Shown here: positions 7,293 to 50,103 of the stretch, piece after piece | Position numbering within the stretch: position 1 is the stretch's first letter | Layout: every line of letters begins with the position of its first letter | From: Myxococcota bacterium | GTDB lineage: Bacteria > Myxococcota_A > UBA796 > JAJRTE01 | Assembly (NCBI GenBank): GCA_024278455.1 | Contig: JAJRTE010000118.1 | Coordinates: 33,521 to 97,520, forward strand | Direction of reading: 5' to 3' | DNA: 64,000 nucleotides | Program-made: the position numbers and the translations under genes | Notes under the pieces: generated by a model | Told to the model about the DNA's origin: nothing | Seen by the model: the letters and a program-made list of their open reading frames with translations, nothing else | The model's database searches: none

Positions 7293-7296
7293 GTAC

Positions 7297-9347: not shown

Positions 9348-9366
9348 GCTGACCTTTGGAACGCGG

Positions 9367-9885
9367 CTAGGCCGAAACCTGTATCGTCCCTGTCCGGCGG
9401 GCGAGGGACGACTCGACTCGAGACAACAGGGGAAACAGTAGCAGGACCACTGCCGCGCTGCTGGCAGCTCGAGCCACCACACTGGCCGGGGTGAATTCCA
9501 GGGGAGACGGGATCGAAGCGAGTCTCCCCAGCCCCGCGGCCCCGGCCTCGATCAAGACGCTGAGCATGGCAACCAGGAGCATCTGCACGGCACGGGTCTG
9601 CAAGAGCAATCTCATCCCGAGCAACCGGACGAGGAAAAACAGGCAGACATAGAGAAACAGGTAGGTCCCGAACGGCCGTCCCGAAAACAGGTCCACCAGG
9701 TATCCATACGACAAGGCCAACCCCGCGCCATTCACCTTGCCCCGGCGTATGCCCGCGTACACCAGGATGATCAACAGCATGTCCGGCTGCAGAATACTGT
9801 AGGTAGTATAGCTCACCACGGTCGATTGCAAGACCAAAATGAGCCATCCGACACCGAGGAGCAGAAAGAAGGTGCGAAGACTCAT
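9367..9885 (-). CDS. mreD: Rod shape-determining protein MreD
   Basis: Small polytopic membrane protein between mreC and mrdA. Its ATG overlaps the mreC stop (ATGA). Confidence 0.7.
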   Translation of the reverse strand: MSLRTFFLLLGVGWLILVLQSTVVSYTTYSILQPDMLLIILVYAGIRRGKVNGAGLALSYGYLVDLFSGRPFGTYLFLYVCLFFLVRLLGMRLLLQTRAVQMLLVAMLSVLIEAGAAGLGRLASIPSPLEFTPASVVARAASSAAVVLLLFPLLSRVESSLARRTGTIQVSA

Positions 9886-10856
9886 TCGCTGGTCTCCGAG
9901 ATGGGCGTCACGGTCTTGGGGATGACCCGGCCGGCACCTTCGAAAAAAGGGCTCGCCTGTCGTCCGCCGTCGCCTGGTTCTGCGGGCCCGCACTGGCAGC
10001 CCTCGATGTCCTCAGGCCCATCAGGCGGGGGCAGCGTTGCCAGCACGGCGACTTCTTCGATACGTGACATGTCGACCGCCGGCGCTATGCGTACTTCCTG
10101 GAAGACGTCGGAGGCGCGGCGACGAAGACTGCTCACTGTTCCAATCGCCAGCCCCGGGGGGAAAATGCTGTCCAGGCCCGACGTCACGACGAGATCCCCG
10201 GGCCGAACCTCGTCGAGGCGTAGGAGATACTTCAATCTCAGGGACGCGGCGCCAAGTCCTTCCACGGTGCCCCTGGCCCGCGTGCGTTGAATCAGCGCGT
10301 CGACACCGCTCTGGGGATCGGTCACCAACAAGACGTCGGCATAGTTCGACCAGGACCGCAGGACGCGCCCCACCACACCGGCGGACGTTACGACCGGCAT
10401 GCCCCGCAGCACGTTCCCCTCGGTCCCCCGGTCGATCCGGATGGTTCGATAGCGCGAGATAGGATCGTAGCCCACGACGCGCGCGGTGTACATCGGCCGG
10501 CCATGCTGTTCCGAAAAGTCGAGCAGCTTGCGCAAACGTTTGTTCTCGAGTTCCACTTCGTGAAGCTCTTCCAGGCGCTCGCGCAGCACAGCGACCTCAC
10601 GAGCCAACCTGTCGTTCTCCTGGCGAACGCCGACAAGAGCGACATAGGTGTGCCAGACGGTCGCAGCACGGCGAAACGCAACCGTGACAGCACGTTGTGC
10701 GGGGGCCGATAGCTTGAGCACGGCGCGGTCCACGGCGTTCAGTTCGTGTGGCCCCTTTGCGTTGGCGAGGAAGACCAGCAGTGTGGCCCCCAACAACAGC
10801 AAGGCGAGCACCAGCCGGCGCCGACGCCGGCGGAGAGGGCGAAACAGGATAGACAT
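9882..10856 (-). CDS. mreC: Rod shape-determining protein MreC
   Basis: N-terminal TM, coiled-coil region (ENDRLAREVAVLRERLEELHEVELENKRL), beta-rich C-terminal domain. Directly upstream of mreD. Confidence 0.8.
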   Translation of the reverse strand: MSILFRPLRRRRRRLVLALLLLGATLLVFLANAKGPHELNAVDRAVLKLSAPAQRAVTVAFRRAATVWHTYVALVGVRQENDRLAREVAVLRERLEELHEVELENKRLRKLLDFSEQHGRPMYTARVVGYDPISRYRTIRIDRGTEGNVLRGMPVVTSAGVVGRVLRSWSNYADVLLVTDPQSGVDALIQRTRARGTVEGLGAASLRLKYLLRLDEVRPGDLVVTSGLDSIFPPGLAIGTVSSLRRRASDVFQEVRIAPAVDMSRIEEVAVLATLPPPDGPEDIEGCQCGPAEPGDGGRQASPFFEGAGRVIPKTVTPISETSE

Positions 10857-11052
10857 TGGTGCCCATATATACCAGGCGGCGGCGTTTTTCAAGCGCATTT
10901 TGCCTTGACAGGCAGCAGTGCCAGGCTATACTGCGCAAGCGCCAGAGCGCGCAACGTTGCACACAATCGAACGCATGGGTCCTCCAGGTCGTGCTGGTCC
11001 TCCAGTGACCTCGAGCACGCCGCAGGACCCGGTAAACCGGGGCCCCCCAGAC

Positions 11053-23501: not shown

Positions 23502-26015
23502 TCACATCCCTGCCGGGTCGACGCCCGACAGGAGTCGTCCCCCAATCGCCGGCGAGGCGCGATCCTCCTCGAGTACGATGAATGCATGAATGCCAAAGCA
23601 TCCGCACGGTGAGGTATAACGCAGATCGAGCCGCTGCGCCACGGGCTGGATCTTGTGGGTGAACGTCACTGAAGAGCGAGCTTCGAGCGAGAACCCTCTT
23701 GCGAATCGCCCGGCCCCGGGCAACACCGCCGCCAACCAGTCGAGGCCCACCTGTGCGCCCAACTCCAGCGACGTTCCGCCTGTTGTCGGGGTGGGGTAGT
23801 ATCCCAGTGGCGGATTCGCCTCTCGCGAAGGATTCATCCACCCGAGCCGGTAGTCCAGCCGGAGAAGACCGAGTCGGGAGCTTCCATCGACGAAGATCCA
23901 CGAGAACGCCCGGAGGTCCGGCGCAGTCAGCACTGAAAGCCCCACCCGCGACGGCTGCACCGCCGTCAACCGGAACTCGAGATCGGTCCATCGGCCCGGA
24001 CGCGCGAACTCTTTGCCCAGGGCCACCTGGAGCCACCCCACCTCGACTTCCCGGGACGCCCCGTCATCCCGAAGCGTGCCGGAGACTTGCTGCGAGACAT
24101 GGAATACGATCTGCCTGGCCGGCCGAGACACGTCCCCGATCGCCGCGACGAACGCGGGATCCTCTGAAGACCATAGATCGTAGGCAACCTGGACGCCGGG
24201 CTCGACGAGATGACGGATACTTTCCCACGCCCCCCCCCCGAGAACGAATCGGCGGCCGATGAGCGTTCCCAGATCGATCGTCAGTGGCACCCGGTGGCGA
24301 TACAGGGCCGAAGCCAGTTGCGAGTCGGTACCATCAGTGGCGCGTGCCAGCGGCGCCATGAGGTCGCCTCGATAGCCCACGGAGGCCTTGGCGGTTGCGA
24401 TGTGCCACGGCTGAACCGTCCACACGATACTGGCTCGTGTGCTCGAGTAGAGCGGCCCACCAGCCTCCAGGGCCGGCGTGACGGGCGCTCCTGTTCCGCT
24501 CTGCTGCCGAAAGACCCCCCAGTCGGCATCGACTCGGGCCACACCCAAGCCGATTCGACGCGCCTGCCCAGTATATGAGACGTCGAGTTCCGGTGTCCGG
24601 CCTGCGAGTGAGAATTCGTGGTCGTCGAGATCGACGTAGCGGCGGACTCCAAGGGTCCCTGTCCAGCGTTCACCAGGGACCTCGAGCCGCGCGCGGGACG
24701 CCATCACATTCCCGGCCCGCGTCTCGATGTCGGTCCCGAAGTCTGCCAGGTAGTCCGGGTCGCTGAGCGCGCTCATGTCCGCGTAGATCCCGAGTCCGTT
24801 GTCAAAACGTTGTGCATGTTCCCAGTCCCACTCCCAGCGGTGGGACGGCGTGTCGGGCGTGGCGTCGGCACGGTAGCGCACTCGAGCACTGCCGCTGCCT
24901 GACACGTTCTGGTAGGCGAGTCGGCCGAACGCGCGGATGCCCCGGATTTCGGTCCAGCCGAGCCCCAGCCACAGGCGGTGGCCCCGGTCGATTCGCCAGG
25001 TCCAGGGGAGATCGACGTCGAGCCCGTCCTGGCCGTGTGCCACTCGAGGAGCCAGCGGGCCTGAGTAAATCCCCGGGACCAGCGGCAAGGTAAGGCGCGG
25101 CAAGTAGAAGACGGGGACGCCCTTGATCTTCAGGACCGCGGACTCGAGGCGGAGTCGTTCTGGACGCCCCGGGAGTGCCGGCATCCATGCCGGGTGGCGG
25201 GCTGAGGAAGTGGGAGGCTGTGTCTCGGCCGCGGGCACTTCGCCGCTGATCGTGCTTGCTGCGGCGGTCTTCGTCGCCGGTCGCGGTTCGATGGCGTTCG
25301 GTGGACGGGCTTCCAGGAAGACGGCGTGGCGGGCGGACAACACGACCAGGGGGCCTTCCGGGGCGGGGGGCGGTCCGCTGCTGCCTGGATCTGTTCCGCG
25401 CTCGCACCAACAGGGAGCGAAGAGGGTGTCGAACAGTTGCAGGTCCTTTCCCGTTGCCCATTGTGCGCCCGCTGCCCAGGCATGGGCGCCTGCGTCCGCA
25501 AGGAAAACGTGGCACTGCCCCAGACTGCCCGCGCCGTTCCCGGCGTCGATGGAGACCTCCATGGCCTCGAAGGTCGTGTCGGCCGCGCGCCAGAGCACCT
25601 GGCCGCGCAGGCGAACCACGCGATTCGCCAGGTCGATCTGGGCGCTCGAGGCGGTCAGGCGATATCCACCCCATTCCAGGAAGACCCCGTTCTTTCCCAG
25701 CATGCGAAGTGCCTTGCTATCGAACGTCAGGGAGCCGGCGCCGAGCGTCACGAAGGAGGAGATCGTGGTGCTCGATCCCGCAACGTTCGGCCGTGTGCTG
25801 TGTTCGTCCCTGTCCACCGTGGCCCCGGGTTGGGAGGGAGAAGTTGCTTCTCCGGCGTTGCGTGCCGGCGTGGACGCTTCGTTTTCATAGACCTGGGCGA
25901 TTGCGGGTCGAGGCCATGCGAGAAACGGGACAGGGAGCGAGAGCATGATCGAGAACAGGGTCAGGAACCACGGCTTGTGGCGGCCGGTGTGGAGGGCGAC
26001 GGCGCCGCGGCGCAT
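23502..26015 (-). CDS. lptD: LPS-assembly outer-membrane protein LptD (OstA-like N-terminal domain plus C-terminal beta-barrel)
   Basis: Signal/anchor (FLTLFSIMLSLPVPFLAWP). OstA-like beta-jellyroll region (VFLEWGGYRLTASSAQIDLANRVVRLRGQVLW). Large C-terminal beta-barrel with a CxC near the C-terminus (SPCGCFG). Confidence 0.55.
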   Translation of the reverse strand: MRRGAVALHTGRHKPWFLTLFSIMLSLPVPFLAWPRPAIAQVYENEASTPARNAGEATSPSQPGATVDRDEHSTRPNVAGSSTTISSFVTLGAGSLTFDSKALRMLGKNGVFLEWGGYRLTASSAQIDLANRVVRLRGQVLWRAADTTFEAMEVSIDAGNGAGSLGQCHVFLADAGAHAWAAGAQWATGKDLQLFDTLFAPCWCERGTDPGSSGPPPAPEGPLVVLSARHAVFLEARPPNAIEPRPATKTAAASTISGEVPAAETQPPTSSARHPAWMPALPGRPERLRLESAVLKIKGVPVFYLPRLTLPLVPGIYSGPLAPRVAHGQDGLDVDLPWTWRIDRGHRLWLGLGWTEIRGIRAFGRLAYQNVSGSGSARVRYRADATPDTPSHRWEWDWEHAQRFDNGLGIYADMSALSDPDYLADFGTDIETRAGNVMASRARLEVPGERWTGTLGVRRYVDLDDHEFSLAGRTPELDVSYTGQARRIGLGVARVDADWGVFRQQSGTGAPVTPALEAGGPLYSSTRASIVWTVQPWHIATAKASVGYRGDLMAPLARATDGTDSQLASALYRHRVPLTIDLGTLIGRRFVLGGGAWESIRHLVEPGVQVAYDLWSSEDPAFVAAIGDVSRPARQIVFHVSQQVSGTLRDDGASREVEVGWLQVALGKEFARPGRWTDLEFRLTAVQPSRVGLSVLTAPDLRAFSWIFVDGSSRLGLLRLDYRLGWMNPSREANPPLGYYPTPTTGGTSLELGAQVGLDWLAAVLPGAGRFARGFSLEARSSVTFTHKIQPVAQRLDLRYTSPCGCFGIHAFIVLEEDRASPAIGGRLLSGVDPAGM

Positions 26016-26107
26016 CCACGACAAGCGGTCCCGGGCCGGCCGGAGCGGCGGTGTCGGGGCGTGTCGAGGGGGGCGGCCCATGCTGGTTGGCCGTTGAGCC
26101 GCGTTGG

Positions 26108-27397
26108 TCACATCACCGACTCCGTGGGGCGAGCGATGGCCTGCTCTGCCTCGTGGACGATCGAGAGAGATCCACAGAGGATGTTCGCACCTCTCTTGTT
26201 GCGGCCAAAGGCCTCGATCGTGTCCGCGACGGTTGGAGCAATGGAGATTTCAGGCACTGGGGCGCCGGTCGGGATGGCTTTTCGTGCCACTTCTCGAGCG
26301 GTTTGCCTGAGTCGATCTGGTTCGATGCACCTGTTGGCCGAGCTGCGTGTGCAGATCAGGTGGTCGATCTCCGGAAGGAGAGGTGCGAGAAAGCCCCTGA
26401 CATCCTTGTCCTCGAAGATCGCAACCGCAAGCCATCGGGGGCTTCCGCGGCAGGTTGTGCGCAGGTTCCGGGCCAGGGCGAGGGCCGCGTGCGGGTTGTG
26501 CCCGCCGTCGACCAGGAAGCGGTATCCTTCCGGGTGGCAAAACCACTCGAGCCGTCCGCGTAAGCGAGTGGCCTCGAGACCTTCGCGGATGGCGCTGGCG
26601 GTGATGCGGAACGTCATCCGGGTCAGCCTGGAGGCCGCCTGGACGGCCAGGGCCGCATTGTCACGCTGATGGGTTCCAGGTATGCCGAGGCGGAGACCTT
26701 TCAGGCGGAGGCTCGGGGAGACGAACACCAGGTCGTTGCCCGTTCCGTCCATTCGGAAGTCCTCGTTCAGCACGTCAATGGGCATGGCCCCATTGGTCGC
26801 GTCTGGTTCGAGCCACGCTCGAGCTTGACCCGATGCCCCGGTGACGAGCGGTCTGCCGGGACGTCCTATGGCGGCCTTTTCTCGAGCGATCGATCCCAGG
26901 TCGCCGCCCAGTTCTCGCACGTGGTCCAGGGCGATGGATGTCAGGATGGAAAGCAACGGGTCGCAAACGTTGGTGGCATCGAGTCTTCCGCCCATGCCCA
27001 CTTCGACGAGGGCGATGTCAGGGTGTGCCTGTTCGAAGGCGAGAAAGGCCATTGCTGCCGCGGTTTCGAAGAGGGTGAGGCGGTCTGGCGCGGCGCGTCG
27101 CACCAGGAGGGCGAGGGCCTGCCCCTGCGTGTTGGTGAGGGGGGTGCCATTGTAGCAAATCTGTTCGTGGAAATCGGCGAGGGCCGGGGAGGTGAACGTT
27201 CCCACCCGGTACCCCGCAGCGCGCAAGATGGCGTCGAGAAACGCCACCGTGGACCCCTTGCCGTTGGTTCCTCCCACCAGGACGGCAGGCACGGCACGTT
27301 CCGGGTGGCCGAGGCGTTCCAGTGTCTGGCGGAGCAGTTCGTTCGAGGTTCTCTGTCCTGGGGCGATCCAGCCGATGAGATAGTCAGGAGTCAACAT
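26108..27397 (-). CDS. folC: Bifunctional folylpolyglutamate synthase / dihydrofolate synthase
   Basis: Mur-ligase motifs VGGTNGKGST, DHVRELGG, GGHNPHAA. Classic position immediately downstream of accD. Confidence 0.85.
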   Translation of the reverse strand: MLTPDYLIGWIAPGQRTSNELLRQTLERLGHPERAVPAVLVGGTNGKGSTVAFLDAILRAAGYRVGTFTSPALADFHEQICYNGTPLTNTQGQALALLVRRAAPDRLTLFETAAAMAFLAFEQAHPDIALVEVGMGGRLDATNVCDPLLSILTSIALDHVRELGGDLGSIAREKAAIGRPGRPLVTGASGQARAWLEPDATNGAMPIDVLNEDFRMDGTGNDLVFVSPSLRLKGLRLGIPGTHQRDNAALAVQAASRLTRMTFRITASAIREGLEATRLRGRLEWFCHPEGYRFLVDGGHNPHAALALARNLRTTCRGSPRWLAVAIFEDKDVRGFLAPLLPEIDHLICTRSSANRCIEPDRLRQTAREVARKAIPTGAPVPEISIAPTVADTIEAFGRNKRGANILCGSLSIVHEAEQAIARPTESVM

Positions 27398-27418: not shown

Positions 27419-29503
27419 TCAGGAATACAACATCGAGTAGATGTTTGCCACGACCCTGCGCATGTCTTTCCTGTGAACGATCATGTCCACCATGCCATGC
27501 TCCAACAGGTACTCCGCGCGCTGGAATCCCTCGGGCAACTTCTGGCGGATGGTCTGCTCGATGACCCTGGGCCCCGCGAACCCGATCAAGGCGCCCGGTT
27601 CCGCGATGTTGACATCGCCCAGCATGGAGAAGCTCGCAGCCACTCCTCCCGTGGTCGGGTGACACAGCAAGGAGACATACGGCAGGGCGGCTTCTTTGAG
27701 CCTTGCCAGGGCGGCGCAGGACTTTGCCATCTGCATGAGCGACAGGACGCCTTCCTGCATCCTGGCGCCGCCCGATGCGGCGATGAGGATGGCGCCGGTT
27801 CGGGCGGCCAGGGCGTTCTCGAACATGCGCGTGACCTTCTCGCCCACGACCGAACCCATCGAGCCGCCCAGGAAGGTGAAGTCGAAGACACCGACGTGAA
27901 CCGGGAGGTCGTCCAGGGTTGCGGACCCGTACACGAAGGCATCATGAACGCCCAGTTTCTTCTGGACGGCCGCCAGGCGTTCACGGTAGGTCTTCGAGTC
28001 CTTGAACTCGAGGGGATCGACGGGGACGATGTGGGCATCGATCTCCGTGAAGCTGCCTTCGTCCACCGTCATGTCTATGCGGCGTCGCACCGGAAGATAG
28101 TGATGGAAGCCACACTGGGTGCAGACGTTCAGATTGGCTTCGAAGTCCGGGCGGTAGATGATCTCTCGGCACTTCTTGCACTTGAACCAGATGGCCTCGA
28201 GGGGCCTGCTGGCCTGCGGGCGCGCGGTGTCCGAGGATTCCCCCAGCGCGTCGGTGGCCAGCACCCAACCGGGCACGATCCCCTGTTGCCCGTTGGCTGG
28301 TTGTGCTCCTGCATGACTCACGAGTTCCTCGAACACCCTGCTCCCCGGTGGAGCGTAGCTTTCCGGGACGAGTTTCTCCATGACGAGGTCATGCAGCACC
28401 GGCCGGAACTGCTTGATCTTCTCGTTCTCCCGTGACGGGTGCACGCGGTTGGTGAGTAGGATCAGGACGATTTCGCGTGCAACGTCTATCCAGATGGATG
28501 TCCCGGTGAAACCCAGGTGACCCACGCTCAGCCCGGTGAAGAGTCGTCCTGCGGCCGACCCTTCGCGTGCGGGCACGTCCCAGCCATAGGCGCGCATGGA
28601 GCCGTCCGGGAAGACGCGTCTGCGCCAGAACTCTTGCACCACGTCTGGTCCGAACAGGAGTCCTCGTTCGCCATGGTAGGCCTTGAGCATGGTCACGGCC
28701 AGGGCGTGGATCTCCTCGGCGGTGGAGAACAGCCCGGCATGTCCTGACACCCCCCCCATGACGTGGGCGTTGTCGTCGTGTACCTCTCCTGTCAAGTAGC
28801 GGTCCAGGCGCCTGTTGTATTCCGTGGTGGCGAAGGCTTCCCGGGGCAGGCCTCGTCGCGGCGGCTCCGCGCCCAGGGGCAGGAAGAAGGTGTGTGACAG
28901 GCCAAGGTGCCGGTAGATATGCTCTTCGCAATACGTGTCCAGCGGCATACCGGCTGTTCGCTCGATGGCTTCCGTGAGAAGAATGAAGCCGAGATCGCTG
29001 TAGATGGCGCTCGAGCCTCTTGGCTGAACCTGTGGCGAAGCCTTGACCTCCGCCATGATGGCTGCCCTGGCTTCCGGGGTTCCGGGCTCGAGGCTGCCGA
29101 GTCGGTGGTTCTCCACGATCTCCTGGTAGAATGGTCGCCAGGCGGCCAGTCCGGCCCCGTGGATCAACAGGTCGGAGATCAGGACGCGGTCCTTCCACCC
29201 GCCCGAGTATTCGGGAATGTGCCTGGACACGGGGTCCTCGAGGGACATTCTACCGGACTCGACAAGGGTCATGACGGCAGGCGTCGTTGCCAACACCTTG
29301 GTCAGCGATGCAAGGTCGAATACGGTGCCTCGAGTCATGTTGCGTTGACTGGGCAGTCGTTGAGCGGCACCGTAGGCCTTGAAGTGGCGCACCACGCCTC
29401 CGGCTGAAACCAGCATGACTGCCCCGGGAAACACCCCGTCGGCCAGGGCCTGTTCCAGGCAACCGTCCACGTTGGGAGACAGGACTTTTTCTCCGAAATC
29501 CAT
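27419..29503 (-). CDS. accD: Fusion protein. N-terminal beta-lactamase/transpeptidase-family serine hydrolase domain (about 420 aa) joined to the acetyl-CoA carboxylase carboxyltransferase beta subunit (AccD, about 285 aa)
   Basis: The N-terminus has the SxxK motif (ASLTK) and overall class-C/AmpH-like serine hydrolase similarity. The C-terminus has the AccD zinc ribbon CKKC...CTQCGFHH, followed by FTFLGGSMGSVVGEKV, ASGGARMQEG, and IGFAGPRVIEQTIRQKLPEGFQ. It is a single uninterrupted ORF. Confidence 0.75.
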   Translation of the reverse strand: MDFGEKVLSPNVDGCLEQALADGVFPGAVMLVSAGGVVRHFKAYGAAQRLPSQRNMTRGTVFDLASLTKVLATTPAVMTLVESGRMSLEDPVSRHIPEYSGGWKDRVLISDLLIHGAGLAAWRPFYQEIVENHRLGSLEPGTPEARAAIMAEVKASPQVQPRGSSAIYSDLGFILLTEAIERTAGMPLDTYCEEHIYRHLGLSHTFFLPLGAEPPRRGLPREAFATTEYNRRLDRYLTGEVHDDNAHVMGGVSGHAGLFSTAEEIHALAVTMLKAYHGERGLLFGPDVVQEFWRRRVFPDGSMRAYGWDVPAREGSAAGRLFTGLSVGHLGFTGTSIWIDVAREIVLILLTNRVHPSRENEKIKQFRPVLHDLVMEKLVPESYAPPGSRVFEELVSHAGAQPANGQQGIVPGWVLATDALGESSDTARPQASRPLEAIWFKCKKCREIIYRPDFEANLNVCTQCGFHHYLPVRRRIDMTVDEGSFTEIDAHIVPVDPLEFKDSKTYRERLAAVQKKLGVHDAFVYGSATLDDLPVHVGVFDFTFLGGSMGSVVGEKVTRMFENALAARTGAILIAASGGARMQEGVLSLMQMAKSCAALARLKEAALPYVSLLCHPTTGGVAASFSMLGDVNIAEPGALIGFAGPRVIEQTIRQKLPEGFQRAEYLLEHGMVDMIVHRKDMRRVVANIYSMLYS

Positions 29504-29535
29504 CGAGGACCCCCGTTCAATCGGAATCAATCGCG

Positions 29536-30456
29536 TCACGCCACGACCGGCTCCCGTATCTCAAGTGTGCCCTTGTTACCATCCAGGGTCGCAAGTGCCC
29601 CGATCGGCAGCGTGGCGTTGTTTTCTCCATGGCCGAAGGGAAGCCCGTGGACCACGGGTCCGGGAATGGCTTGCGCGAATTGCTCAAGAATGTCCACCAC
29701 CGGCCGCCCCGCAGCGCCAGGCTCAACGCAGTCGACCATTTCTCCGAAGGCGACCCCCGCCGCCTGTTGCAGTTTGCCGGCGAGCTGGAGTTGTGTCAAA
29801 AGACGATCGACCCGGTAGGGGCGTTCTCCGATGTCCTCGAGGAAAAGGATCTTGCCTCGAGTGTCCAGTTCGAACGGCGTGCCGAGTGTGGCGGCTATCA
29901 GGGAGAGGTTGCCGCCGCAGAGTCGTCCGGTGGCGCGCCCCTCCGACAGGCAGATCGACCCGCCCGTCCCGGCTGCCACAGGACCGGGAATCGTGTGCGG
30001 CCGGGTCAGCATGGCCATCATCTGCGCCAGGCTCGAGGCGCTGGTCTTGTGCAACCCGGCCACGAGGGGGCCATGGAACGTGACGAGCCGCGTCATCTCC
30101 GTGATATGGTTCAGGAGCGGCGTCAGATCGGAGTGGCCAAGGACCACCAGGGGATGCGTATCCACGGAAGGCAGTACCAGGTCCGGGAGTAGTTGCATGA
30201 CTCCGTATCCACCGCGGGCGAAGAAGACCGCCCTGATGTCCGGAGACGTGAACAACTCCTCGAGTTCGGCGATGCGTCGTTCCCGGGACCCGGCCAGGTA
30301 GTGTTCTCGATCGTGGATGTCGGCCCGATACCGAACCCGGAAGCCCTGAGTCTGGAGCCAGGCAACGCCCGCATCGAACGCAGCCCGGTCGAATGCGCTC
30401 GATGGAGCCGCGATGCCTATGACATCCCCTTTTTGCAAAGCTGGTGGAAGGACCAT
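29536..30456 (-). CDS. ldcA: LD-carboxypeptidase (peptidase S66, LdcA/MccF family)
   Basis: Motifs GDVIGIAAPSS, VFFARGGYG, VVLGHSDLTPLL, IFLEDIGERPYRVDR, HGLPFGHG. Its stop overlaps the start of the accD fusion gene. Confidence 0.8.
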   Translation of the reverse strand: MVLPPALQKGDVIGIAAPSSAFDRAAFDAGVAWLQTQGFRVRYRADIHDREHYLAGSRERRIAELEELFTSPDIRAVFFARGGYGVMQLLPDLVLPSVDTHPLVVLGHSDLTPLLNHITEMTRLVTFHGPLVAGLHKTSASSLAQMMAMLTRPHTIPGPVAAGTGGSICLSEGRATGRLCGGNLSLIAATLGTPFELDTRGKILFLEDIGERPYRVDRLLTQLQLAGKLQQAAGVAFGEMVDCVEPGAAGRPVVDILEQFAQAIPGPVVHGLPFGHGENNATLPIGALATLDGNKGTLEIREPVVA

Positions 30457-30551: not shown

Positions 30552-31670
30552 CTACTCCGGTTCGTGTCCACTCTGGCATGGTTCCCTTGCATCGCGAGCA
30601 CATTGACATGCGTCCAGTGCCAAGGGGAGAAACGGGCAGGTATCACACGCATGGTCCGGGTCGGCATGGAAACGGCACAAGGCCGCCGGCATGCCTCGCT
30701 CCGGCTCGAGGATGGCGGCGGCAAGGCCCAGGATGAGATCCACGGGGAGAAGCGATGGCTCGACGGACCGATTCTTCGGGCTCCCTTTCGACAGGATGCG
30801 GCCCGAATCGTGGAGATACCATCCCCCGGCCATGCCCACGTCGCGAAGCCGGTCGGCCGGGATGGGTCTTCCCGCCACCACTGCCTCGGCCAGGCGAACG
30901 ACCTCCGCGAGCGGTTCCAGGTCGAACTCCCCCAGCCGGCCTTTCGTGCGCATGGTCACCCCCGTGTGACCTCGAGCGTCGCGGTGCACCACCAGGTCCG
31001 CCTTGTGCAACCGGGCAACCTTCACTGCACCGGTGCTGGCAGATACCACCGCGACCAGGCTGGTCTTGTTGGAAAGACGGATGCGCAGCGCGGACTTGAA
31101 GTCTTGCTCGGCACGAATCCAGTCGAGTTCTGTCGCGTGCGCGGCATCGAACAGCGCCATCATGATGTCGGTCACGCGTTGTGGCTCGCGCGGGTGGCAC
31201 AGGTTGAGTCCTCGAATCAAGTTCGGCAGGCTGACGAGGTGATCCATGGGAATGCGCGACGCGATGGAACGGCCTCGAGTCTCCTGTAGCCTCACGAATT
31301 CCAACAACTTGGATAGTTCCGGGCGATTCATAATGCCGAGGTCCTCGGCGACAAGCCATGACGCCGACTTCTCCTGCTTGCCTGGTGCACGGGTGCCGGC
31401 CCGGGCATGCGTGTCCAGTCGCCCGCCCCCGGTGTCGACGGCAAGCACGCCTCGTTCCTTCTCCAGGGTATCCGGATCGAGACCGTCTGGGAGATGACCG
31501 GCCGGGACGTAGACCACCGGGACACGCGCAATGCCCGGGTACCTGGTATCACCAAAGCGCCGGAGCAGCCAGATGCTCAGCGTGGCGTCCAGGTCGGGAT
31601 GCTCATGGGTCAGAATCGCGGTGACGCGACGGGGTGCAAAGTCGTCGATGATGCCCTCCTGTGGTCGAGC
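30552..31670 (-). CDS. DHH-family phosphoesterase (NrnA-like). The conserved N-terminus lies upstream of the first canonical start codon
   Basis: The track ORF 30552..31517 begins with GTG. The same frame is open 261 nt further upstream with no stop, and encodes DHH motif I (AILTHEHPDLDATLSIWLL; compare H-x-N-P-D-G-D-A-x-G-S) and motif II (LAVDTGGGRLDT). That upstream stretch contains no ATG, GTG or TTG. Confidence 0.5.
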   Translation of the reverse strand, partial: ARPQEGIIDDFAPRRVTAILTHEHPDLDATLSIWLLRRFGDTRYPGIARVPVVYVPAGHLPDGLDPDTLEKERGVLAVDTGGGRLDTHARAGTRAPGKQEKSASWLVAEDLGIMNRPELSKLLEFVRLQETRGRSIASRIPMDHLVSLPNLIRGLNLCHPREPQRVTDIMMALFDAAHATELDWIRAEQDFKSALRIRLSNKTSLVAVVSASTGAVKVARLHKADLVVHRDARGHTGVTMRTKGRLGEFDLEPLAEVVRLAEAVVAGRPIPADRLRDVGMAGGWYLHDSGRILSKGSPKNRSVEPSLLPVDLILGLAAAILEPERGMPAALCRFHADPDHACDTCPFLPLALDACQCARDAREPCQSGHEPE

Positions 31671-35042: not shown

Positions 35043-38000
35043 TCACTCCACCTGCACGGCAACCGGGATATACACGACCGGCTGGGTCGGGTCGTTCGTC
35101 TCTGCACGGATCTGGAATTGGTAGCCCCCGGCAGCGAGTCCTTCCGCCGACACGTCCAGGTCCAGGGTAGAGGCTTCCCCGCCCGCGATCACAGCCTCCG
35201 CTGCGCCCTCGAGGTCACGGAACGACACGAGACCGGCCGAGGGCAGCACCGAGGGGGCCAACTCGACGGCGGAGTATGTTCGTGGCACGGTTGGCGCCTC
35301 TCCGGGTCTGATAACGGCGACCTCGAGGCCTTCCCTGCCTTCACCGTCCTGGATGCCGACTCGAGCCCAGCTTTCGGGCGCACCAGGGATCTCCTCGTAG
35401 TAGAACCGGATCCTGCCATCGGGAAAGAGCACGATCTGGAAGGTGTATCGGAAATCACCGGCATAGTCGGGCACGTTCTGGAACTGGACATAGGCGACGG
35501 AACGGGACGAGTCATAGTAGAAGTAGGCGCGATCCGTGGAACCGAAGTCGAGGTCGGCCCAGAACGGAGCGATCAAGTTGGCCGGCGCATCCGAACTCGG
35601 AATCGGCAGTTCGCGATAGGCTTCTGTGGTATCTTCCGTGAGCGTGATGTAGCCATCGGTCGAGACGTAGAGCTGGTTGAACGAGCCCAGGTAGAACGGG
35701 AAGGGCTTGGTAAGAAGCAGTCCCGACGAATGGGCCTGATCCCCAGTCAGGTGGAGGGGCAGGACTTTCAGCTCTAGGTCATCCCACACGAACGGGATTT
35801 CGTACCAGGTGTATGACACGGTGGGTCTGAGGGAGTAGGCCAGTTGGCTTTCCTGCGGTCCTGCGTTGGTCAGCGCGATACGGACCGTGCCGGAATCTCC
35901 AGAGGAGATCTCGAGGGGAACTGGACTCACGTTCCATTGCAGCACCGGTGCCGGGCGTTCGGCCAGCTCGAGTTCCACGATGCCCACGGATCCCGTGGCG
36001 GCGGCTCCCTCCGCGGGAGCCTGGATGGGAATCATGACCGACACGTCGTAGAAGCCAACGGCGCTGGCTGTGAGCATGCCCGACGTGGCGCTGGCGTCGT
36101 CCAGCTCGAACAGGAAGTTGCCGGCGCTGTCCGTTCCGGTCTCGAGCACGTCGCTGGCGACTTCCAACGTGACGCGTGCAGCAGGGATAGGCGCGCTGTC
36201 TCCCTGGTCTGACGATACGACGCGCCCGCTAACCACGATGCGAGGCGTCCCTTCACCGTCGGTCAGGATGCCCGTGGCCAGGAAGGCTTCCAGCAGGCTG
36301 GAATAGAGCCGCTGCGCCTGGTCGGACGCCAGCCCGATCTCGGTGGCCGCGCCGAGCATGCTGACCGCGAATTCGGTGAAGCCGCTGGCCGGCGTCAACC
36401 GGTACTGCACAGTGTTGTACGCGCAACGGGCGAGCAACCGGGCGGCGGCCCAGGGGTCGTCGTCGATGGGTGTCACCGCGTACCCATGGAAGGTTTTCCC
36501 TGGAGGGGTTCCCGACACGGCCAGGTACATGGCCTTGTTGACGATGGCGGAGTCGTAGTGCAGTGGCGTGTAGCCGCCGTCGCTGCCGATGTACCCGCTC
36601 ATGTGTCCCGGCATGCCGAATATCTCCGGGTGGGCGAGGTTGCGGACCGGCGGCCTTCCAGGGATGTCTTCCCCGATGGACCAGTCCAACTCCCCGGTGG
36701 CGTAGGCCTCCACGAACGTGCCGAACAGGTCGGCCAACGCCTAGTTGAGGGCACCGGACTGCCCGGCATATTCGAGGTCCGGGCCATGGTCGATAACGCC
36801 GTGAGTGAGTTCATGCGCGATCACGTCCACGGCCACCGCGAGGGACGTGGCGCGCGACGTGCCGACGCAAAGCACCGCGTAGTCCGTGATCCAGGCCGCG
36901 TTGTAGCCAGACATATCCACCCGCACCACCACGTCCATGGGACTGTCGCTGTCGTCGATGCCTTTTCGGCCATGCTCCTCGAGGTAGTAGTCCAGCGCCA
37001 TGCGGACAGCGGCCAGCGCGCTGACACTCGCGCCATATTCTGGCTCGTCGAACCTGGTGCCGGGACCGTAGGTGATGTGGTCGTATTCGTCGAAGAACTG
37101 CCGGTCGTATGCCGAGAAGACGGAACCGTCGCTGTGGATGACATAGATCACCCCGGTCTCCTCCTCTGAAGAGGCATCCACGAAGAAGGTGTCGTCGCCG
37201 GCAGCATCTCCGTAGAGGTCCGGGTAGGCGTCGTCATCGTAGGGGTGGAGGTAGCCATCCACGAGATAGGGAAGGGGGAAGCCCTGTCCGCGGTACAGGT
37301 TCAGGGCATAGACCTGCCCGTCGTCGCCCGTGCCCGTGGCCGACACCTGGCAATCGGTATCGTTTTCGCTCGAACAGGTGGGCCAGGTGGAGGTGTCGAG
37401 ACGAACCAGGTCCTCTCGAGCCAGTACGCGGCCGTCGACCTTGCTCACCAGTGCCCGAACCGGGCGTGTCTCACCCGTTCGGGCATCCAGTGCCTCTGCC
37501 ACGAACTCCAGCGCGGCTTCCGCCGCCCCATGCGGCCCCACCCACAAGAAAGTCTGGCCTTCCGTTCCCAGGACGCGCAGCCCCTCCGCGCGGACGCGGT
37601 CGGCCATCTCGCGGGGCGACAGGACGCCCTGCTCGACTGTCCGGATGTTCGCCAGGCTGGCGTTGAGGGAGGTGACACGGCCGCCTCGAACATGAAGATT
37701 GAGTCGGGCGCCGCGTACCGGCAGCTCCCCACGGTATTGATGGAACTGCAGGTGCCTGGCACCGTGGGTGTCCGTGTCGTCTCGAGTCAGCCGCAAAGTG
37801 GAGAGTGGGTCCAGGGCCAGGAGGTGACCCAGCCGGGTGCGCACGCTCTGGCCCGGATCTCCGCGGCCCAGGTCGGGAAACGGGAGGTCGACCCCTGCCG
37901 CGGCCTTCACCCGGCCGTCGCGATCGTACACCGCCCAGACACGCCCGGCGCTGGAGATCGAACCTCCTGGTGCCTCAGGGCGCACGCCGGCAACAGCGCT

Positions 38001-38138
38001 CGGATCGCTCCTCGATTCGCGCTCGACAAGGGCCGTTCGCCGCTCCATCTCTCCCGGGGTGCCGGGGTCGCAGACGACCCCCAGAGACGCGACGACCATT
38101 CCGAGAACAATCCCGGCTGTTCTGCACCTTCTGTCCAT
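35043..38138 (-). pseudogene. Thermolysin-like M4 zinc metalloprotease (propeptide, catalytic domain and C-terminal extension) interrupted by an in-frame TAG at 36741-36743
   Basis: The upstream ORF ends ...[27 protein letters not shown]. The downstream ORF continues [13 protein letters not shown]... (compare thermolysin HELTH ... ESGAINEAISDIFGT). TAG replaces the Glu codon at the thermolysin E166 position (third zinc ligand). N-terminal signal peptide at MDRRCRTAGIVLGMVVASLGVVC. Confidence 0.75.
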
Positions 38139-39237
38139 GCGGGCATTCCCTTCTCCCGGCCGGGCACGACCGGAGAACGCCGATGATACATCTTTCGCGA
38201 AGCGGCTCGAGAACGGAACGACAGCGGGGAGCAACAGGGAGCGCAGAACACGGCAAGCACAATCGGTACTGCGGGGAAAGCCTTCCGCCGACGCCAGCGG
38301 TCGAATCATTCGGGCTGGCTGCTACCCAGTGTACATCGCACGGTCGCACCGTGTCAACGGGATTGACACTGCCAATTTGTGCGCGAAATCGCGGCAGAAA
38401 TCCGGCTGGATAGCGGTTGCCACCAGGTTTCCAGTGGTAGATTGGTCATTCCGTGGGCCTGCTCGACCCGGCTCGAGGACTCCGCCCACTGGTGGGCCGG
38501 GCCGCCAGGCCGAGTCTTGGGTGAACCACGATAGGCGTTGTGACGAAGAAACTCGGTGGGCAAGCGCATCGACGCAGCAGGACCACCCCGCGATGGGGTT
38601 GTAACGGTATGTTTTTGTTGAGAAAACCAGGTGGGGGCGGGTATTTGCCTGCCGCGCTGGATTCTCGCCAAGAAAATTCTTGCGCTGTTGGTTTGTCAGG
38701 TGTACGGATGACAGCATCCCAAGGGTAGAATCGCGTTAGCCGTCGTGGTGGCCGTGCTCAAAAACCGTCTCTATCACGAGATGTCGATAGCGATAATTTG
38801 CGATTATGGGTGAGAGAAAAATCTTGGCCCGTCAATAGAAAACATGGATTAGCGCTCGACCGATACTCTCTTCTCGTTCACAATAGCATGGGGTGTTCTG
38901 CCTTGCGACCTACTCGGGCTCGTTGTAGCGGATGTCGACCCGTTTCGTCCTGGTAGTTGCTTTGACACACGTCCAGAAAGTCCGAAAGCGCGTGGGAAGA
39001 ACGTCGCAAATAAACGCGGTGCGTCGAGCACCGCAGTGGAGGCCCTTCTGGCTGTCGTGGTTGCCTGCTCGAAACACGTCTGATGCAGGGACATTGGGGG
39101 ATGGCTTTGGGGGCGTGGTAGACCAAGGAATAACGCTGAGATCGGAGCCCGGGCGTGCCGAACAGAAGCTGACACGAGCACTCGCGGCGAACCAGGGAAC
39201 TACGGCGTTGGCAGTTGTTCCGACGGAGAGGTGTGAC

Positions 39238-43805: not shown

Positions 43806-44906
43806 ATGGAGCGGTATGGCATGGCGTGGCTCGTGGATGCAGCCCAACTGACTACACGTCTCGGCAAGGCCCTCGTCTCGGGCCGTGTGCCAAACTACGT
43901 CATCGCCTTCGTGACCGGACACTGCAACATGTCCTGCGCCTTTTGCTGCCCGGCTTCCCGGTCCATCCGTGACGCGGATGAACTCGACCCGGACCAGTGG
44001 GGGCGCGCCTTGTCCGGGTGCGACGCACTGGTTCATCTCACCGTCACCGGCGGCGAGCCCTTCTTGCGCGACGACCTCCTCGACGTCGTCTCGAGTATGG
44101 TAGGTTCCAGCGGCGTTCCTCGGCTGAGCATCAACACCAACGGGTACTTCACGGGCAGGATCTTCGCCACCCTCGAGACGCTGTTGCGCCGGTTCCCGGG
44201 GGTCGACACCTGCCTGGCGATCTCCCTGGACGGACCTCGAGCCGTTCACGACGCGCTGAGAGGCATGCCCGGGGCGTTCACGCGGGCCCGATCCACCATC
44301 GACGAGGTGGACAGGCTGCGCTCGAGGTATCCTCGGCTCACGGTCCGTCTCACGTCGGTCCTACAGCCGGACAACGCAGATGTGCTGGGACCGTTCCTCG
44401 AGGAGACCGCCCTCTGGCCCGTCGACTTCCACGAGCTGGCCTTGATCCGTGACGTGCCGATCGAGGTTCAGCGCCAGGTGGTGGAAGCCTACCGCAGGCT
44501 CACCGCCGTGCAGCTCCGCCGGGCATCCCGCCGCTACCTCCAGACCATGGATTGGCGGCTCGCCCGGCAGCTCCGGCAGGACGTGTTGGACCAGACCGCC
44601 GAAGGGGCGAGACCGTTTGGTTGCCTCGCGGGCGGCCGGATGATCGAGGTGATGGCCGACGGCACCGTGCGCGGGTGCGAAATGGAGAAGATGCGGCCTC
44701 ACAGCAACCTGGGGCGGGTTGGGGGTGACGCACACACCATCGTGGACCTGCTGGCCGGCGAACCGGCGAGGCGGTTCCGGCGCAGGGCGGCGTCGTGCCA
44801 CTGTACGTTCGAGTGCGCACTGACCTGCAAGACCGTATTCACGCCTCGAGCATGGCCCCGCCTGTGGATGCCACGTCGCTTCGGGCCGGAACAGGAGGAC
44901 CGATGA
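43806..44906 (+). CDS. Radical SAM / SPASM-domain protein
   Basis: CxxxCxxC (GHCNMSCAFCC), GGEPFL, and a C-terminal Cys-rich SPASM-like region (CHCTFECALTC). Confidence 0.8.
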   Translation: MERYGMAWLVDAAQLTTRLGKALVSGRVPNYVIAFVTGHCNMSCAFCCPASRSIRDADELDPDQWGRALSGCDALVHLTVTGGEPFLRDDLLDVVSSMVGSSGVPRLSINTNGYFTGRIFATLETLLRRFPGVDTCLAISLDGPRAVHDALRGMPGAFTRARSTIDEVDRLRSRYPRLTVRLTSVLQPDNADVLGPFLEETALWPVDFHELALIRDVPIEVQRQVVEAYRRLTAVQLRRASRRYLQTMDWRLARQLRQDVLDQTAEGARPFGCLAGGRMIEVMADGTVRGCEMEKMRPHSNLGRVGGDAHTIVDLLAGEPARRFRRRAASCHCTFECALTCKTVFTPRAWPRLWMPRRFGPEQEDR

Positions 44907-45916
44907 ACCCGGTGGCGGTCAGCATTATCGTCCCCGCGCACAACGAAGCCTCGAGGCTCGATACGTGCTTGTCATCGATCGTCGAGATGTCCCGAACCAA
45001 GGGCTGGCAGGCACTGGTGGTGGACGACGGGAGCACCGACGAGACCGCCAAGGTCGCTCGAGGCGCGGGCCTACCGGTGATCCGAAACGAGACGCCACAA
45101 GGGGTGGCGGCGGCCCGCAACCTGGGAGCCAATCGCGCCGATGGCGACGTGCTGGTCTTCGTCGACGCCGATGTGGTGGCGCCGGCGGAAACACTCGAGG
45201 CCCTCGTCGCGCGGTTGGTGGACGATGCTGGCGTGCATGCTGTGGGTGCGTGGCCCGAAGTTTCGGACCTGTCGCCGGAATGGAGTGCCCGGTTCGTGGG
45301 CCTCCGCGCTGCCATGCCTTTCAAGATCGGGCCGCGATCGGACATCGAGTGCTTTTCCGCTTTCCAGTCCGAGTGCGGGGCCATCCGTCGCGAAACGTTC
45401 CAGGCCGTGGGAGGCTTCCCGGACCATCACCGGGGCGTTGGCATGGAAGAGTTCGAGATGGGCCACACTCTCGAGCGTCTCGGTTACCGGAATGTCATCC
45501 TGGCCGATGCCCACTACTACCACCATTTCAAACCGCTCGGTCCCCGGTGTCGCGAGCTGTACCGGCGAACGCGCCGGTGGGTTCCGCTCCTGCTCGACCG
45601 CGGGCGTCTCGAGTCCACCGGGGCGGTGGGAACTGGCCACGAGACCCTGTCCTGCGGGCTGTCCGTGGCCGCTGCCGCCGGGTTGGTGGTCGCGCCGTTT
45701 CACGCCGGCGGGCTGGTGTTGTCCGCTTCCGCCCTGGCTGCGCAAGGCTTGGTCGAGCGGCGGTTCCTGGCCCTGGCCCGGCGCACGTGCGGCCCCGCGA
45801 TGGCGCTGTACGCCCTGCCTGCGCTTCAGTGCATCAACCTGTCGATCGCCGCGGGGTTTGCGGCCGGGCTGGTCGACCAGGTCGCGCGCGGCGGCCGGAC
45901 GCCGGAGCAACGGTGA
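44903..45916 (+). CDS. Family 2 glycosyltransferase (GT-A fold)
   Basis: VSIIVPAHNEA ... VVDDGSTDET ... DxD (FVDAD). The start overlaps the stop of the preceding radical SAM gene. Confidence 0.8.
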   Translation: MNPVAVSIIVPAHNEASRLDTCLSSIVEMSRTKGWQALVVDDGSTDETAKVARGAGLPVIRNETPQGVAAARNLGANRADGDVLVFVDADVVAPAETLEALVARLVDDAGVHAVGAWPEVSDLSPEWSARFVGLRAAMPFKIGPRSDIECFSAFQSECGAIRRETFQAVGGFPDHHRGVGMEEFEMGHTLERLGYRNVILADAHYYHHFKPLGPRCRELYRRTRRWVPLLLDRGRLESTGAVGTGHETLSCGLSVAAAAGLVVAPFHAGGLVLSASALAAQGLVERRFLALARRTCGPAMALYALPALQCINLSIAAGFAAGLVDQVARGGRTPEQR

Positions 45917-45944
45917 TGGGGCGCTCCTGTTTCGGCGCAGCGCG

Positions 45945-45982
45945 CTGCGCCCCTGCCTCCCTCGCTCCTACTCGCTACTCGA
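45945..45982 (+). repeat. Partial copy of a roughly 30-bp GC-rich repeat motif (gYGCCCCTG ... CTCGCTaCTyC); see also 61951-62063
   Basis: tgcgcccctgcctccctcgctcctactcgctactcg aligns with the two direct repeats at 61958 and 62032. Confidence 0.3.
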
Positions 45983-46009
45983 GACGATGTCAAGATGGGT
46001 TGGGCGACC

Positions 46010-46471
46010 CTATTGGGGTCCTCGAGACGATCGCAACTCCCGATAACGTGTCTCTTCATGGAGTTCCGAATGGTGCGAACGGTGTTGGAAGCTCAACAAC
46101 CAATGGGAACCGGTCAGCAGGAATTGCCCGGTTTCGTCGCGGTTGGCGTCGATCCGCTCCTTGATGTAAGGAAGGAGGTCCGGGGCGTACTGCACCTCGT
46201 CGAATATCACGGGCGGTGGGTACATCTCGACGAAGGTACGCGGATCTCGCTGTGCAGCCCCGCGGACATCGGGTGGCTCCAGGGAGACGTAGCGGTGGTG
46301 CGTTCCGAAGAGGTGCAGCAGGAGCGTGGTCTTGCTGGCCAGGCGGGGTCCGGTGAGCACCAGGGCCGGGAACTCGGCGGCCGCTTCCTTGAGGATGGGC
46401 TCCAACGATCGCTCGATGTCGGCTGGACGCACGGGCAGCCTCCTTGGTGGAGACGCGCATTTCGAATGCAC
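46010..46471 (-). pseudogene. N-terminal fragment of an AAA_14/DUF4143-family ATPase with a degenerate Walker A
   Basis: ALVLTGPRLASKTTLL (the GK Gly is replaced by Ser), IFDEVQYAPDL, FLLTGSH, then loss of similarity after about 120 aa. Homologous to the intact copy at 32089..33288. Confidence 0.5.
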
Positions 46472-47079
46472 GAAGTCAGGTGCTGGAGGCGATTCACCGC
46501 AGGTTGAGCCGGTTGGCCACGGAAGAACGGCGTCTTCGCACGGCTTGGCGGTTGGCGACCGGCCTGGGATCCTCCCATCCGACGGAAAACGGGTTCACCT
46601 TCGACTGGAACGTCGGCGTGCCGTTTCTCCCAGGATCGTCCCTCAAAGGGCTCGCACTCGCCCATGCGCGCCTGATCGGGATGACCGAGGACCGTGTCAC
46701 GGCCCTGTTCGGGCTCCAGCGGGACGAGGACCGGGTGCGCGAGGACTGGAGCGCGTCGGGAGACCTGGTCTTCCTGCCCGCCTACCCCAGCCGGTGGCCG
46801 GACATCGAGGTGGATGTGGTCAACTGCCACCACCCGGAGTACCATGGAGATCGCCCGGGCAGCCGTCCGGCACGTCCGGCTGTGGACTACGAGAATCCCA
46901 ACCCTGTCTTCTTTCTCACCGTGGCTTCGGACCAGGACTTCATCTTCCGGCTGTTCAGCCGGACCGGAGACCTGCGGGCGGTCGAGCGCGGGTTCCAACT
47001 CCTCGAGGAGGGCCTGGGCACGCTTGGCGTCGGGGCAAAGACTGCCGTGGGGTATGGGTTGCTGGCGCCGGTCTCGTGA
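46444..47079 (+). CDS. RAMP-superfamily protein (Cas7 group, Cmr6/Csm3-like), solitary
   Basis: Cmr6-type N-terminal motif (TGLGSSHPTENGFTFDWNVGVPFLPGSSLKGLALAHARL) and a C-terminal glycine-rich loop (LGTLGVGAKTAVGYGLL). 211 aa with a TTG or GTG start. There is no other cas gene in the window. Confidence 0.65.
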   Translation: MVETRISNARSQVLEAIHRRLSRLATEERRLRTAWRLATGLGSSHPTENGFTFDWNVGVPFLPGSSLKGLALAHARLIGMTEDRVTALFGLQRDEDRVREDWSASGDLVFLPAYPSRWPDIEVDVVNCHHPEYHGDRPGSRPARPAVDYENPNPVFFLTVASDQDFIFRLFSRTGDLRAVERGFQLLEEGLGTLGVGAKTAVGYGLLAPVS

Positions 47080-47223
47080 CGAGTCGAGGCAGGTGGTGAT
47101 GTGCGGGCTCGTGCCGCGGAAGATCTCGAGAAGGAAGGGATTGTATTACAGATGGAACAACGTTCGTCATGCCCCGGTCGTGCGAGCACGAATGGACCGG
47201 AGAGGGACATCTTCAGGGCTCTA

Positions 47224-47388: not shown

Positions 47389-47570
47389 TCGTAGGTCGGG
47401 GAGTCTTCGTCGTACGGGAGGCTGGACAAAAGGTCGTACGCCCTTCAGATGTCTCGAGACGAGGACCGTGAGCGGTTCGATCGGATGGCCGTGGTGCTCG
47501 ACTACGCGGCGATGTCATTCCCGACAAAGGTTCCGAACGGGCTTGAAATACCGCGCCGCGGCTGCTAGCC

Positions 47571-50092: not shown

Positions 50093-50103
50093 AAGGAACA
50101 GCG

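Follow-up and report, generated by a model that had tools for sequence, protein, structure and literature searches.

How an AccD subunit came to carry a complete serine hydrolase of the beta-lactamase family at its N-terminus, and what this union may mean for the cell, is the question raised by a gene in a 64,000-nucleotide (64-kb) stretch of a Myxococcota bacterium genome (GTDB lineage Bacteria; Myxococcota_A; UBA796; JAJRTE01; GenBank assembly GCA_024278455.1, contig JAJRTE010000118.1, positions 33,521 to 97,520 of the forward strand). This whole stretch is referred to here as the window, and coordinates are counted from its first letter. Our results establish the fusion as genuine, conserved and of monophyletic distribution, and we consider it reasonably likely that it yields one bifunctional cytoplasmic protein, born once by the loss of a stop codon between neighbouring operon genes, whose two activities would be independent of each other. 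The gene and its parts are the following (aa, amino acids):

27419..29503, minus strand: fusion gene (YfeW/AmiE-like serine hydrolase, linker and AccD), 694 aa plus stop
28364..29503, minus strand: N-terminal beta-lactamase-family (PF00144) domain, aa 1-380, without signal peptide
29297..29308, minus strand: catalytic S66-L-T-K69 (ASLTK), from the alignment of the fused proteins
28196..28363, minus strand: inter-domain linker, aa 381-436, predicted local distance difference test (pLDDT) 35-46, always in frame
28112..28189, minus strand: AccD zinc ribbon with C442, C445, C461 and C464 (PF17848, E-value 2e-9)
27422..28111, minus strand: AccD carboxyltransferase beta domain (TIGR00515 and structural superposition)

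The open reading frame (ORF) 27419..29539 on the minus strand comprises 706 codons from a GTG start, with no interruption. Since the ATG at 29503 encodes the Met at which all nine aligned homologues begin, the gene is taken as 27419..29503, with 694 aa; domain matches are numbered below on the 706-aa ORF and motif residues on the 694-aa protein. A preliminary description of the window had proposed an in-frame fusion of a complete SxxK domain to AccD, with a frame open for about 420 residues ahead of the zinc ribbon. The ORF and the Pfam and NCBIfam matches agree with this proposal, and 438 residues were counted before the zinc-ribbon Trp. The overlap that it had reported between the stop of the upstream ldcA and the start of the fusion gene holds for the GTG at 29539, whereas the homologue-backed ATG at 29503 leaves a 32-nt spacer.

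The same architecture recurs in other genomes. Among 5.8 billion protein clusters we found nine full-length fused homologues (693-713 aa, 57-83% identity), which display the same three Pfam domains, carry the same N-terminal hydrolase extension on AccD and were drawn from independent NCBI, JGI, ENA and Logan assemblies. Two further edge fragments of 246 aa fall with the fused proteins; one of them, P0269 on contig L091, has an ORF that continues past the contig edge and is therefore a truncated copy. Neither a stop nor a frameshift separates the domains in any of the 10 full-length genes, no orthologue within the fused clade consists of two separate genes, and the order conserved unknown gene-ldcA-fusion-folC is the same in the fetched contigs L001-L006. 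A stop or frameshift between the domains, or orthologues with two separate genes, had been named in the preliminary description as grounds for abandoning the fusion.

Conservation extends to the residues expected to matter for catalysis and metal binding, with S66, T68, K69, Y168, S169, D170, H329, L330 and G331 as well as the four zinc-ribbon Cys invariant across the aligned fused proteins. The linker changes faster. Its insertions and deletions are all in frame across the 10 full-length genes, and the spacer from HDLVME, at the end of the hydrolase, to the zinc-ribbon Trp measures 62-71 aa without stops in four loci. Pairwise identity averages 0.63 in the hydrolase and 0.75 in AccD, and 0.34 in the linker. 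In this regard, comparison of the window with L001 gave ratios of non-synonymous to synonymous substitution rates (dN/dS, Nei-Gojobori) of 0.07 in the hydrolase, 0.19 in the linker and 0.08 in AccD, values to be read only qualitatively, as dS is near saturation. Both halves are thus under strong and equal purifying selection. A foreign insertion of the hydrolase part was also considered and is ruled out by the GC content, overall and at third codon positions (GC3), which is even across the fusion gene and its neighbours.

The AlphaFold2 model, built on a 57-sequence alignment, is confident for aa 1-380 and 437-694 (mean pLDDT 83.9; predicted template modelling score, pTM, 0.61), the hydrolase domain reaching a pLDDT of about 90 or above and linker residues 381-436 remaining at 35-46. 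As modelled, the fusion protein resembles a pair of beads connected by a flexible tether.

The C-terminal half is, as judged from profile and fold matches, a complete AccD. It scores 383.2 bits against the TIGR00515 accD equivalog (cut-off 317.45; aa 439-704 of the 706-aa ORF), and Pfam places Zn_ribbon_ACC at aa 451-476 and Carboxyl_trans at aa 484-664. A Foldseek superposition of the AccD model on the E. coli protein (8uz2_H) gave a TM-score of 0.88, a root-mean-square deviation of 2.5 Å and 54% identity, and the matches to 2f9i_B and 2f9y_B were similar. The C-terminal 270 aa thus correspond to a full-length AccD of the kind known from E. coli and S. aureus, with the carboxyltransferase fold and a zinc ribbon of four Cys, and folC follows accD here as it does in E. 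coli. The difference from the usual AccD lies upstream, where a 380-aa enzyme domain plus a linker replace the leader of about 25 residues. Neither a second accD nor an accA lies within the window, and no free-standing AccD more than 65% identical is listed in the protein databases, edge-truncated fused genes aside. That the databases list no closely related unfused paralogue suggests that the fused AccD is the cell's working accD product.

AccD would then tolerate a 42-kDa N-terminal domain before its zinc ribbon. To our knowledge, the AccD fusions known so far are with AccA. In plastids, AccD bears a long extension at its N-terminus. Extensions of 250-625 residues were also seen in the AccD homologues P0201, P0214, P0231, P0232 and P0222 (550-1,008 aa), and no Pfam domain was found in any of these five extensions.

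The N-terminal half raises the question of what kind of hydrolase has been joined to AccD. A domain search assigns it to PF00144 with 184.5 bits against a gathering threshold of 27 (E 4e-54, aa 25-373 of the 706-aa ORF, profile positions 2-318 of 329), and the active-site motifs SxxK, Yx(N/D) and (K/H)xG of the family are represented by S66-L-T-K69, Y168-S-D170 and H329-L-G331. By a wide margin, the best NCBIfam model is PBP4B/YfeW (NF002968; 163.8 bits), compared with 45 bits for AmpH and 45 or less for AmpC. In line with this ranking, E. coli YfeW aligns with the hydrolase domain in BLASTP with 33% identity over 360 aa (E 1e-45), and the two have in common the motifs SxxK, YSD, GEVHDxxA..MGGVSGHAGLFS and GHxG. 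No hydrophobic signal sequence was detected in the N-terminus of the fusion protein, MDFGEKVLSPNVDG..., and the partner to which the hydrolase is joined is a cytoplasmic enzyme.

The domain has the fold and the three active-site motifs of class C beta-lactamases and family VIII esterases, from which it differs in its identity of 16-23% to AmpC and family VIII, its predicted cytoplasmic location and its peptidoglycan-recycling context. A resistance beta-lactamase was rejected on the basis of class C scores at about one tenth of the cut-offs (42.6 bits against 415 for the AmpC model NF033085) and of the missing signal peptide. By sequence, the hydrolase is best placed in the YfeW(PBP4B)/AmiE branch. 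The likeness to YfeW rests on sequence, that to AmiE on PF00144 membership, operon and fusion partners.

YfeW is an exported protein. Its gene is the third of the E. coli N-acetylmuramic acid (MurNAc) operon murQ-murP-yfeW (PMC5061867). In B. subtilis, amiE (ybbE), also placed in Pfam PF00144 (PMC10653849), belongs to murQ-murR-murP-amiE-nagZ-namZ and encodes a secreted exo-MurNAc-L-Ala amidase whose step falls between those of NagZ and NamZ (PMC8054146). The hydrolase of the window resembles both in its MurNAc-recycling association, and its relatives include fusions with the two enzymes that accompany AmiE in its operon, NagZ and NamZ. In these relatives, which are 40-47% identical, a single polypeptide combines a GH3 NagZ and the hydrolase, in some cases together with NamZ (L069, P0168, P0200, P0248). 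The NagZ-hydrolase-NamZ chains (L069:1752-5783 on the plus strand, P0248, P0168 and P0200) reach about 1,350 aa, carry a signal peptide and unite in a single protein the complete exo-lytic cascade for which B. subtilis uses NagZ, AmiE and NamZ. In P0150 (673 aa), the hydrolase subfamily is joined C-terminally to two GNAT acetyltransferase domains.

The free-standing relatives provide the closest view of the setting in which the hydrolase works. Among the best 80 loci from 185,579 GTDB species representatives, only one has the fused gene (GCA_964418585.1, the contig of L001, 82% identity, labelled by its submitter 'uncultured Gammaproteobacteria bacterium'); the other 79 have a free-standing hydrolase of 38-46% identity, without signal peptide. 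In these 79 loci, ldcA lies directly upstream on the same strand in 41 of 76 and a Mpl-like ligase directly downstream in 27 of 72, both being present in 25. A set of 80 metagenome loci, which among the matches listed comprised only free-standing hydrolases, gave 20 of 59, 16 of 51 and 13, respectively. The downstream ligase scores 350 bits with the mpl model of NCBIfam and 291 with murC. The ldcA-hydrolase-mpl operon is spread over Myxococcota, Binatia, Desulfobacterota, NC10, Nitrospirota and others (for example L009, L011-L016 and L018; L092-L171 in the metagenome set), and we found no description of it in the searchable literature. Unlike YfeW and AmiE, then, the hydrolase and its free-standing relatives are devoid of a signal peptide and stand beside the cytoplasmic LdcA and Mpl. 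In about 10 Desulfobacterota-type loci (L054:6001-12722) the free-standing hydrolase is followed by mreB-mreC-mreD-pbp2-rodA; the window itself holds mreC, pbp2 and rodA at 6191..10898, about 17 kb from the fusion.

Taken together, the YfeW model and the associations with LdcA, Mpl, NagZ and NamZ favour the earlier proposal of a hydrolase of peptidoglycan-recycling type. Judged from family and neighbours, it is most likely a cytoplasmic muropeptide-processing enzyme, and by analogy it is probably a MurNAc-L-Ala or anhydro-MurNAc-L-Ala amidase in the role of AmpD, because an operon of the form ldcA-X-mpl still needs the step that leads from the imported anhydro-MurNAc-peptide to the tripeptide used by Mpl. 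A cytoplasmic DD-carboxypeptidase, which would convert pentapeptides to tetrapeptides for LdcA, is less likely on the same analogy. For the hydrolase subfamily as a whole, we see about an even chance that it is a widespread, uncharacterised AmpD analogue with a beta-lactamase fold, acting as a cytoplasmic anhydro-MurNAc-L-Ala amidase.

AmpD belongs to the zinc amidases with the Amidase_2 fold. The hydrolase, a serine enzyme with the beta-lactamase fold, would thus be its analogue and not its homologue, filling the slot between muropeptide import and LdcA/Mpl in the AmpD-LdcA-Mpl pathway. The fused clade departs from that pathway in that mpl is not in its operon. A large cytoplasmic YfeW/AmiE-like family, encoded between ldcA and mpl in numerous phyla, is a strong candidate for a muropeptide recycling route that does not use AmpD, and this by-product of our analysis may carry wider significance than the fusion itself.

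The fusion gene is embedded in a set of genes on the same strand, given here from upstream to downstream:

30552..31517, minus strand: conserved gene without Pfam or NCBIfam match, upstream of ldcA
29536..30456, minus strand: ldcA (LD-carboxypeptidase, S66), by Pfam; the ORF extends to 30609
26108..27397, minus strand: folC, 21 nt beyond the end of the fusion gene
23502..26111, minus strand: gene for a LptD-like outer-membrane protein (PF04453, E 7e-11)

An LD-carboxypeptidase upstream and folC downstream had both been named in the preliminary description, and the profiles bear this out. LdcA contains both S66 domains (PF02016, E 1e-30; PF17676, E 2e-35) and is a distant member of its family, with 160 bits against the E. 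coli-type equivalog NF008424, below the cut-off of 378; homologues of 306-327 aa suggest the ATG at 30456 as its start. The folC product scores 295.4 bits with TIGR01499 and, as the cut-off of 162.65 is passed, is taken to be FolC and not a Mpl-type ligase. In every fused locus ldcA is directly upstream of the fusion and folC downstream of it. The LptD-like gene overlaps the folC stop, has the same position in L001, the closest relative, and in L089, and probably closes the operon; no terminator-like site was found on the minus strand between 31517 and 23502. Scans of the window for Rfam families and tRNA gave no matches.

The gene at 30552..31517 has counterparts 45-65% identical at L001:7806-8948, L004:7777-8832 and L005:635-1708. 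The members of this family have about 320-380 aa and a Cys/His-rich C-terminus (…CRFHADPDHACDTCPF…CQC…); in the fused clade the family always precedes ldcA, and it is absent from L089.

In a neighbour-joining tree of the AccD parts, the fused proteins and the two 246-aa fragments form one clade. Its sister group consists of P0271 with P0276 and P0319, which are free-standing and about 65% identical to the AccD of the window. The contig of P0276, L089 (7045-12489; also L090), bears ldcA-accD-folC-LptD-like-MopE with 4-nt overlaps and without a hydrolase, so that ldcA and accD are operon neighbours even where no fusion exists. On L088, the contig of P0271, two genes separate accD from a 36%-identical hydrolase, which lies about 3 kb upstream. 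In none of the 159 loci with a free-standing hydrolase (79 from GTDB and 80 from metagenomes) is there an accD nearby, and an adjacent but separate pair of hydrolase and accD was found neither in the 79 nor in the 80, L089 and L088 coming nearest to such an arrangement. The nearest named AccDs are those of Geobacter and Desulfuromonas, the nearest hydrolases those of Myxococcota, Binatia and Desulfobacterota. The fusion is confined to one small uncultured clade. No protein with both domains appeared among the best 150 HMMER matches from 1.84 billion cluster representatives, a list from which the known fused proteins are likewise missing. Although the nine should have ranked at the top, neither the 50%-cluster representative list nor that of the AccD-only word-index search contains them, probably through an effect of clustering or prefiltering, so absence there is not evidence of absence.

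These observations allow us to propose a model for the origin of the protein, which we regard, as stated above, as reasonably likely. The upstream partner would have been the second gene of an old and widespread ldcA-hydrolase recycling module, often with mpl next to it, and the downstream partner an accD heading accD-folC-lptD. In the simplest history, the ldcA-hydrolase pair would have come to sit before accD-folC-lptD, the stop codon between them would have been lost once, and the lineage of L089 would have shed the hydrolase. Since L089 has ldcA-accD-folC-lptD without the hydrolase, adjacency within one operon is the best account of the fusion. The opposite order, with ldcA-accD first and the hydrolase inserted later, is conceivable.

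The product would be a 77-kDa cytoplasmic protein with two independent enzyme domains on a flexible tether. Its N-terminal domain may handle imported muropeptides together with LdcA, releasing the stem peptide that LdcA would trim to the tripeptide, and its C-terminal domain may assemble with AccA into the carboxyltransferase; the fusion would give equimolar co-expression at most. The exact substrate, the independence of the activities and the origin from neighbouring genes are what we infer here.

Several points weigh against this model. Regarding the hydrolase, the PBP4B equivalog cut-off of 385 is missed by the 163.8 bits reported above, which indicates a related branch and not the equivalog itself; no close solved structure was found, the best sequence match in the PDB being Pab87 (E 6e-14); and the fold matches retrieved by Foldseek do not exceed 23% identity. 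The sole activity reported for PBP4B is that of a DD-carboxypeptidase and not an amidase, according to the account of Vega and Ayala (2006) given in PMC5061867. Regarding the origin, the kinship of L089 with the fused clade derives from an unbootstrapped neighbour-joining tree of one protein, and the LdcA and FolC of L089, 41% and 33% identical to those of the window, are not especially close. The retention of the fusion over a divergence large enough to saturate dS fits a selective advantage too. Finally, as regards a second accD, an ampD or an mpl, the analysis covers 64 kb of the genome.

The most far-reaching alternative is functional coupling, in which the hydrolase would bind or cleave muropeptides and regulate AccD, so that lipid synthesis tracks cell-wall turnover and the fusion is adaptive; carboxyltransferase activity, the assembly of acetyl-CoA carboxylase (ACC) or the nucleic-acid binding of the zinc ribbon have been considered as targets. 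This notion draws on a frame that stays intact across a clade diverged to 57% identity despite a fast linker, on an operon in which all of ldcA, fusion, folC and LptD-like gene are envelope-related, on the adjacency of ldcA and accD even in the unfused L089, and on the free-standing hydrolases beside mreBCD-pbp2-rodA in about 10 loci; E. coli ACC, moreover, forms filaments (PDB 8uz2), which a 42-kDa N-terminal domain could conceivably influence. The model, however, gives no hint of an interface between the domains, which are separated by 56 linker residues with pLDDT 35-46 (pTM 0.61), and the full conservation of the catalytic residues speaks for an ordinary enzyme rather than a sensor. Fusion of neighbours is also the simpler account, because the architecture is limited to one small clade (one fused gene among the best 80 GTDB loci), accD is near none of the 159 free-standing hydrolases, which leaves no wider genomic association, and L089 shows the synteny without the fusion; a link between accD and peptidoglycan recycling was not found in the literature. 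We therefore consider coupling unlikely, and distinctly unlikely in its specific form, that the hydrolase tunes the activity or assembly of ACC so that fatty-acid synthesis follows the flux of recycled peptidoglycan. The suggestion of wall-lipid coupling or of a moonlighting domain in the preliminary description accordingly lacks support in the single clade, the 159 loci and the unfused L089.

The remaining alternatives concern what the ORF encodes. Two proteins might arise from it, internal initiation or proteolysis of the linker yielding a separate AccD, and a long, predicted disordered and protease-accessible linker would suit this, as would window GTGs near the native AccD N-terminus, those at aa 390 and 395 with weak GGAG/GAGG sequences 8-9 nt upstream and those at aa 410 and 414, at the VLATDALGE site. 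None of these GTGs or Shine-Dalgarno-like sequences is kept in L001, L004 and L005, no conserved internal start emerged among the in-frame ATG, GTG and TTG codons with Shine-Dalgarno-like sites in the linkers of four loci, and the start earlier suggested near VLATDALGE is not conserved and has no Shine-Dalgarno-like sequence. Moreover, nothing would select for an open frame in that case, and yet 10 of 10 full-length genes keep it, which makes two proteins quite improbable. It is highly improbable that the N-terminal domain is a beta-lactamase for resistance, or that it acts on lipids or acyl-CoA as a family VIII esterase or an acyltransferase; the latter role would connect it with AccD metabolically, through acyl chemistry. 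PF00144 is functionally very diverse, and the closest folds are indeed a macrolactin acyltransferase, family VIII carboxylesterases (6kjh, 4ivi, 7pp3, EstB) and Pab87, but these share only 17-23% identity, the best sequence model is PBP4B/YfeW and the neighbours and fusion partners are consistently LdcA, Mpl, NagZ and NamZ; as for a beta-lactamase, class C models stop at about 42 bits where their cut-offs demand 415 or more, and a protein without signal peptide would have periplasmic beta-lactams out of reach. A sequencing or assembly error that merged separate genes is plausible beforehand for any single contig, and a M4 peptidase gene broken by an in-frame TAG in the same window shows that errors or pseudogenes do occur there. 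Yet 9 further full-length proteins and 2 fragments, obtained from independent samples and by independent assemblers, have the same architecture, both halves are under purifying selection, and a free-standing accD orthologue of the clade was not found in the 5.8 billion protein clusters, so that the probability of an artefact is practically nil and this reading is effectively refuted.

In the searchable literature we found no paper that connects accD to a domain of the beta-lactamase family or to the recycling of peptidoglycan, in agreement with the earlier view that the fusion is undescribed. The fusion is a new domain architecture made from two known families, moderately surprising to a specialist. 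If coupling between its halves were functional, it would offer a handle on how bacteria balance cell-wall and membrane synthesis.

Two further features of the window deserve mention. At 35043..38309 on the minus strand, a thermolysin-like M4 peptidase gene with FTP propeptide, Peptidase_M4, Peptidase_M4_C, CarboxypepD_reg and NIDO domains is split by the single in-frame TAG, located at 36741..36743; around the stop, translation of the minus strand gives G A L N * A L A D L F G. The interrupted position is presumably that of the zinc-ligand Glu of the NExxSD motif, and the TAG looks like a GAG to TAG change, which would represent a pseudogene, a sequencing error or recoding. Elsewhere, the region 43806..52816 holds three radical-SAM genes (one of them B12-binding) together with genes of the GT9 heptosyltransferase family and for a DegT/DnrJ aminotransferase, and is probably a cluster for sugar or envelope modification.

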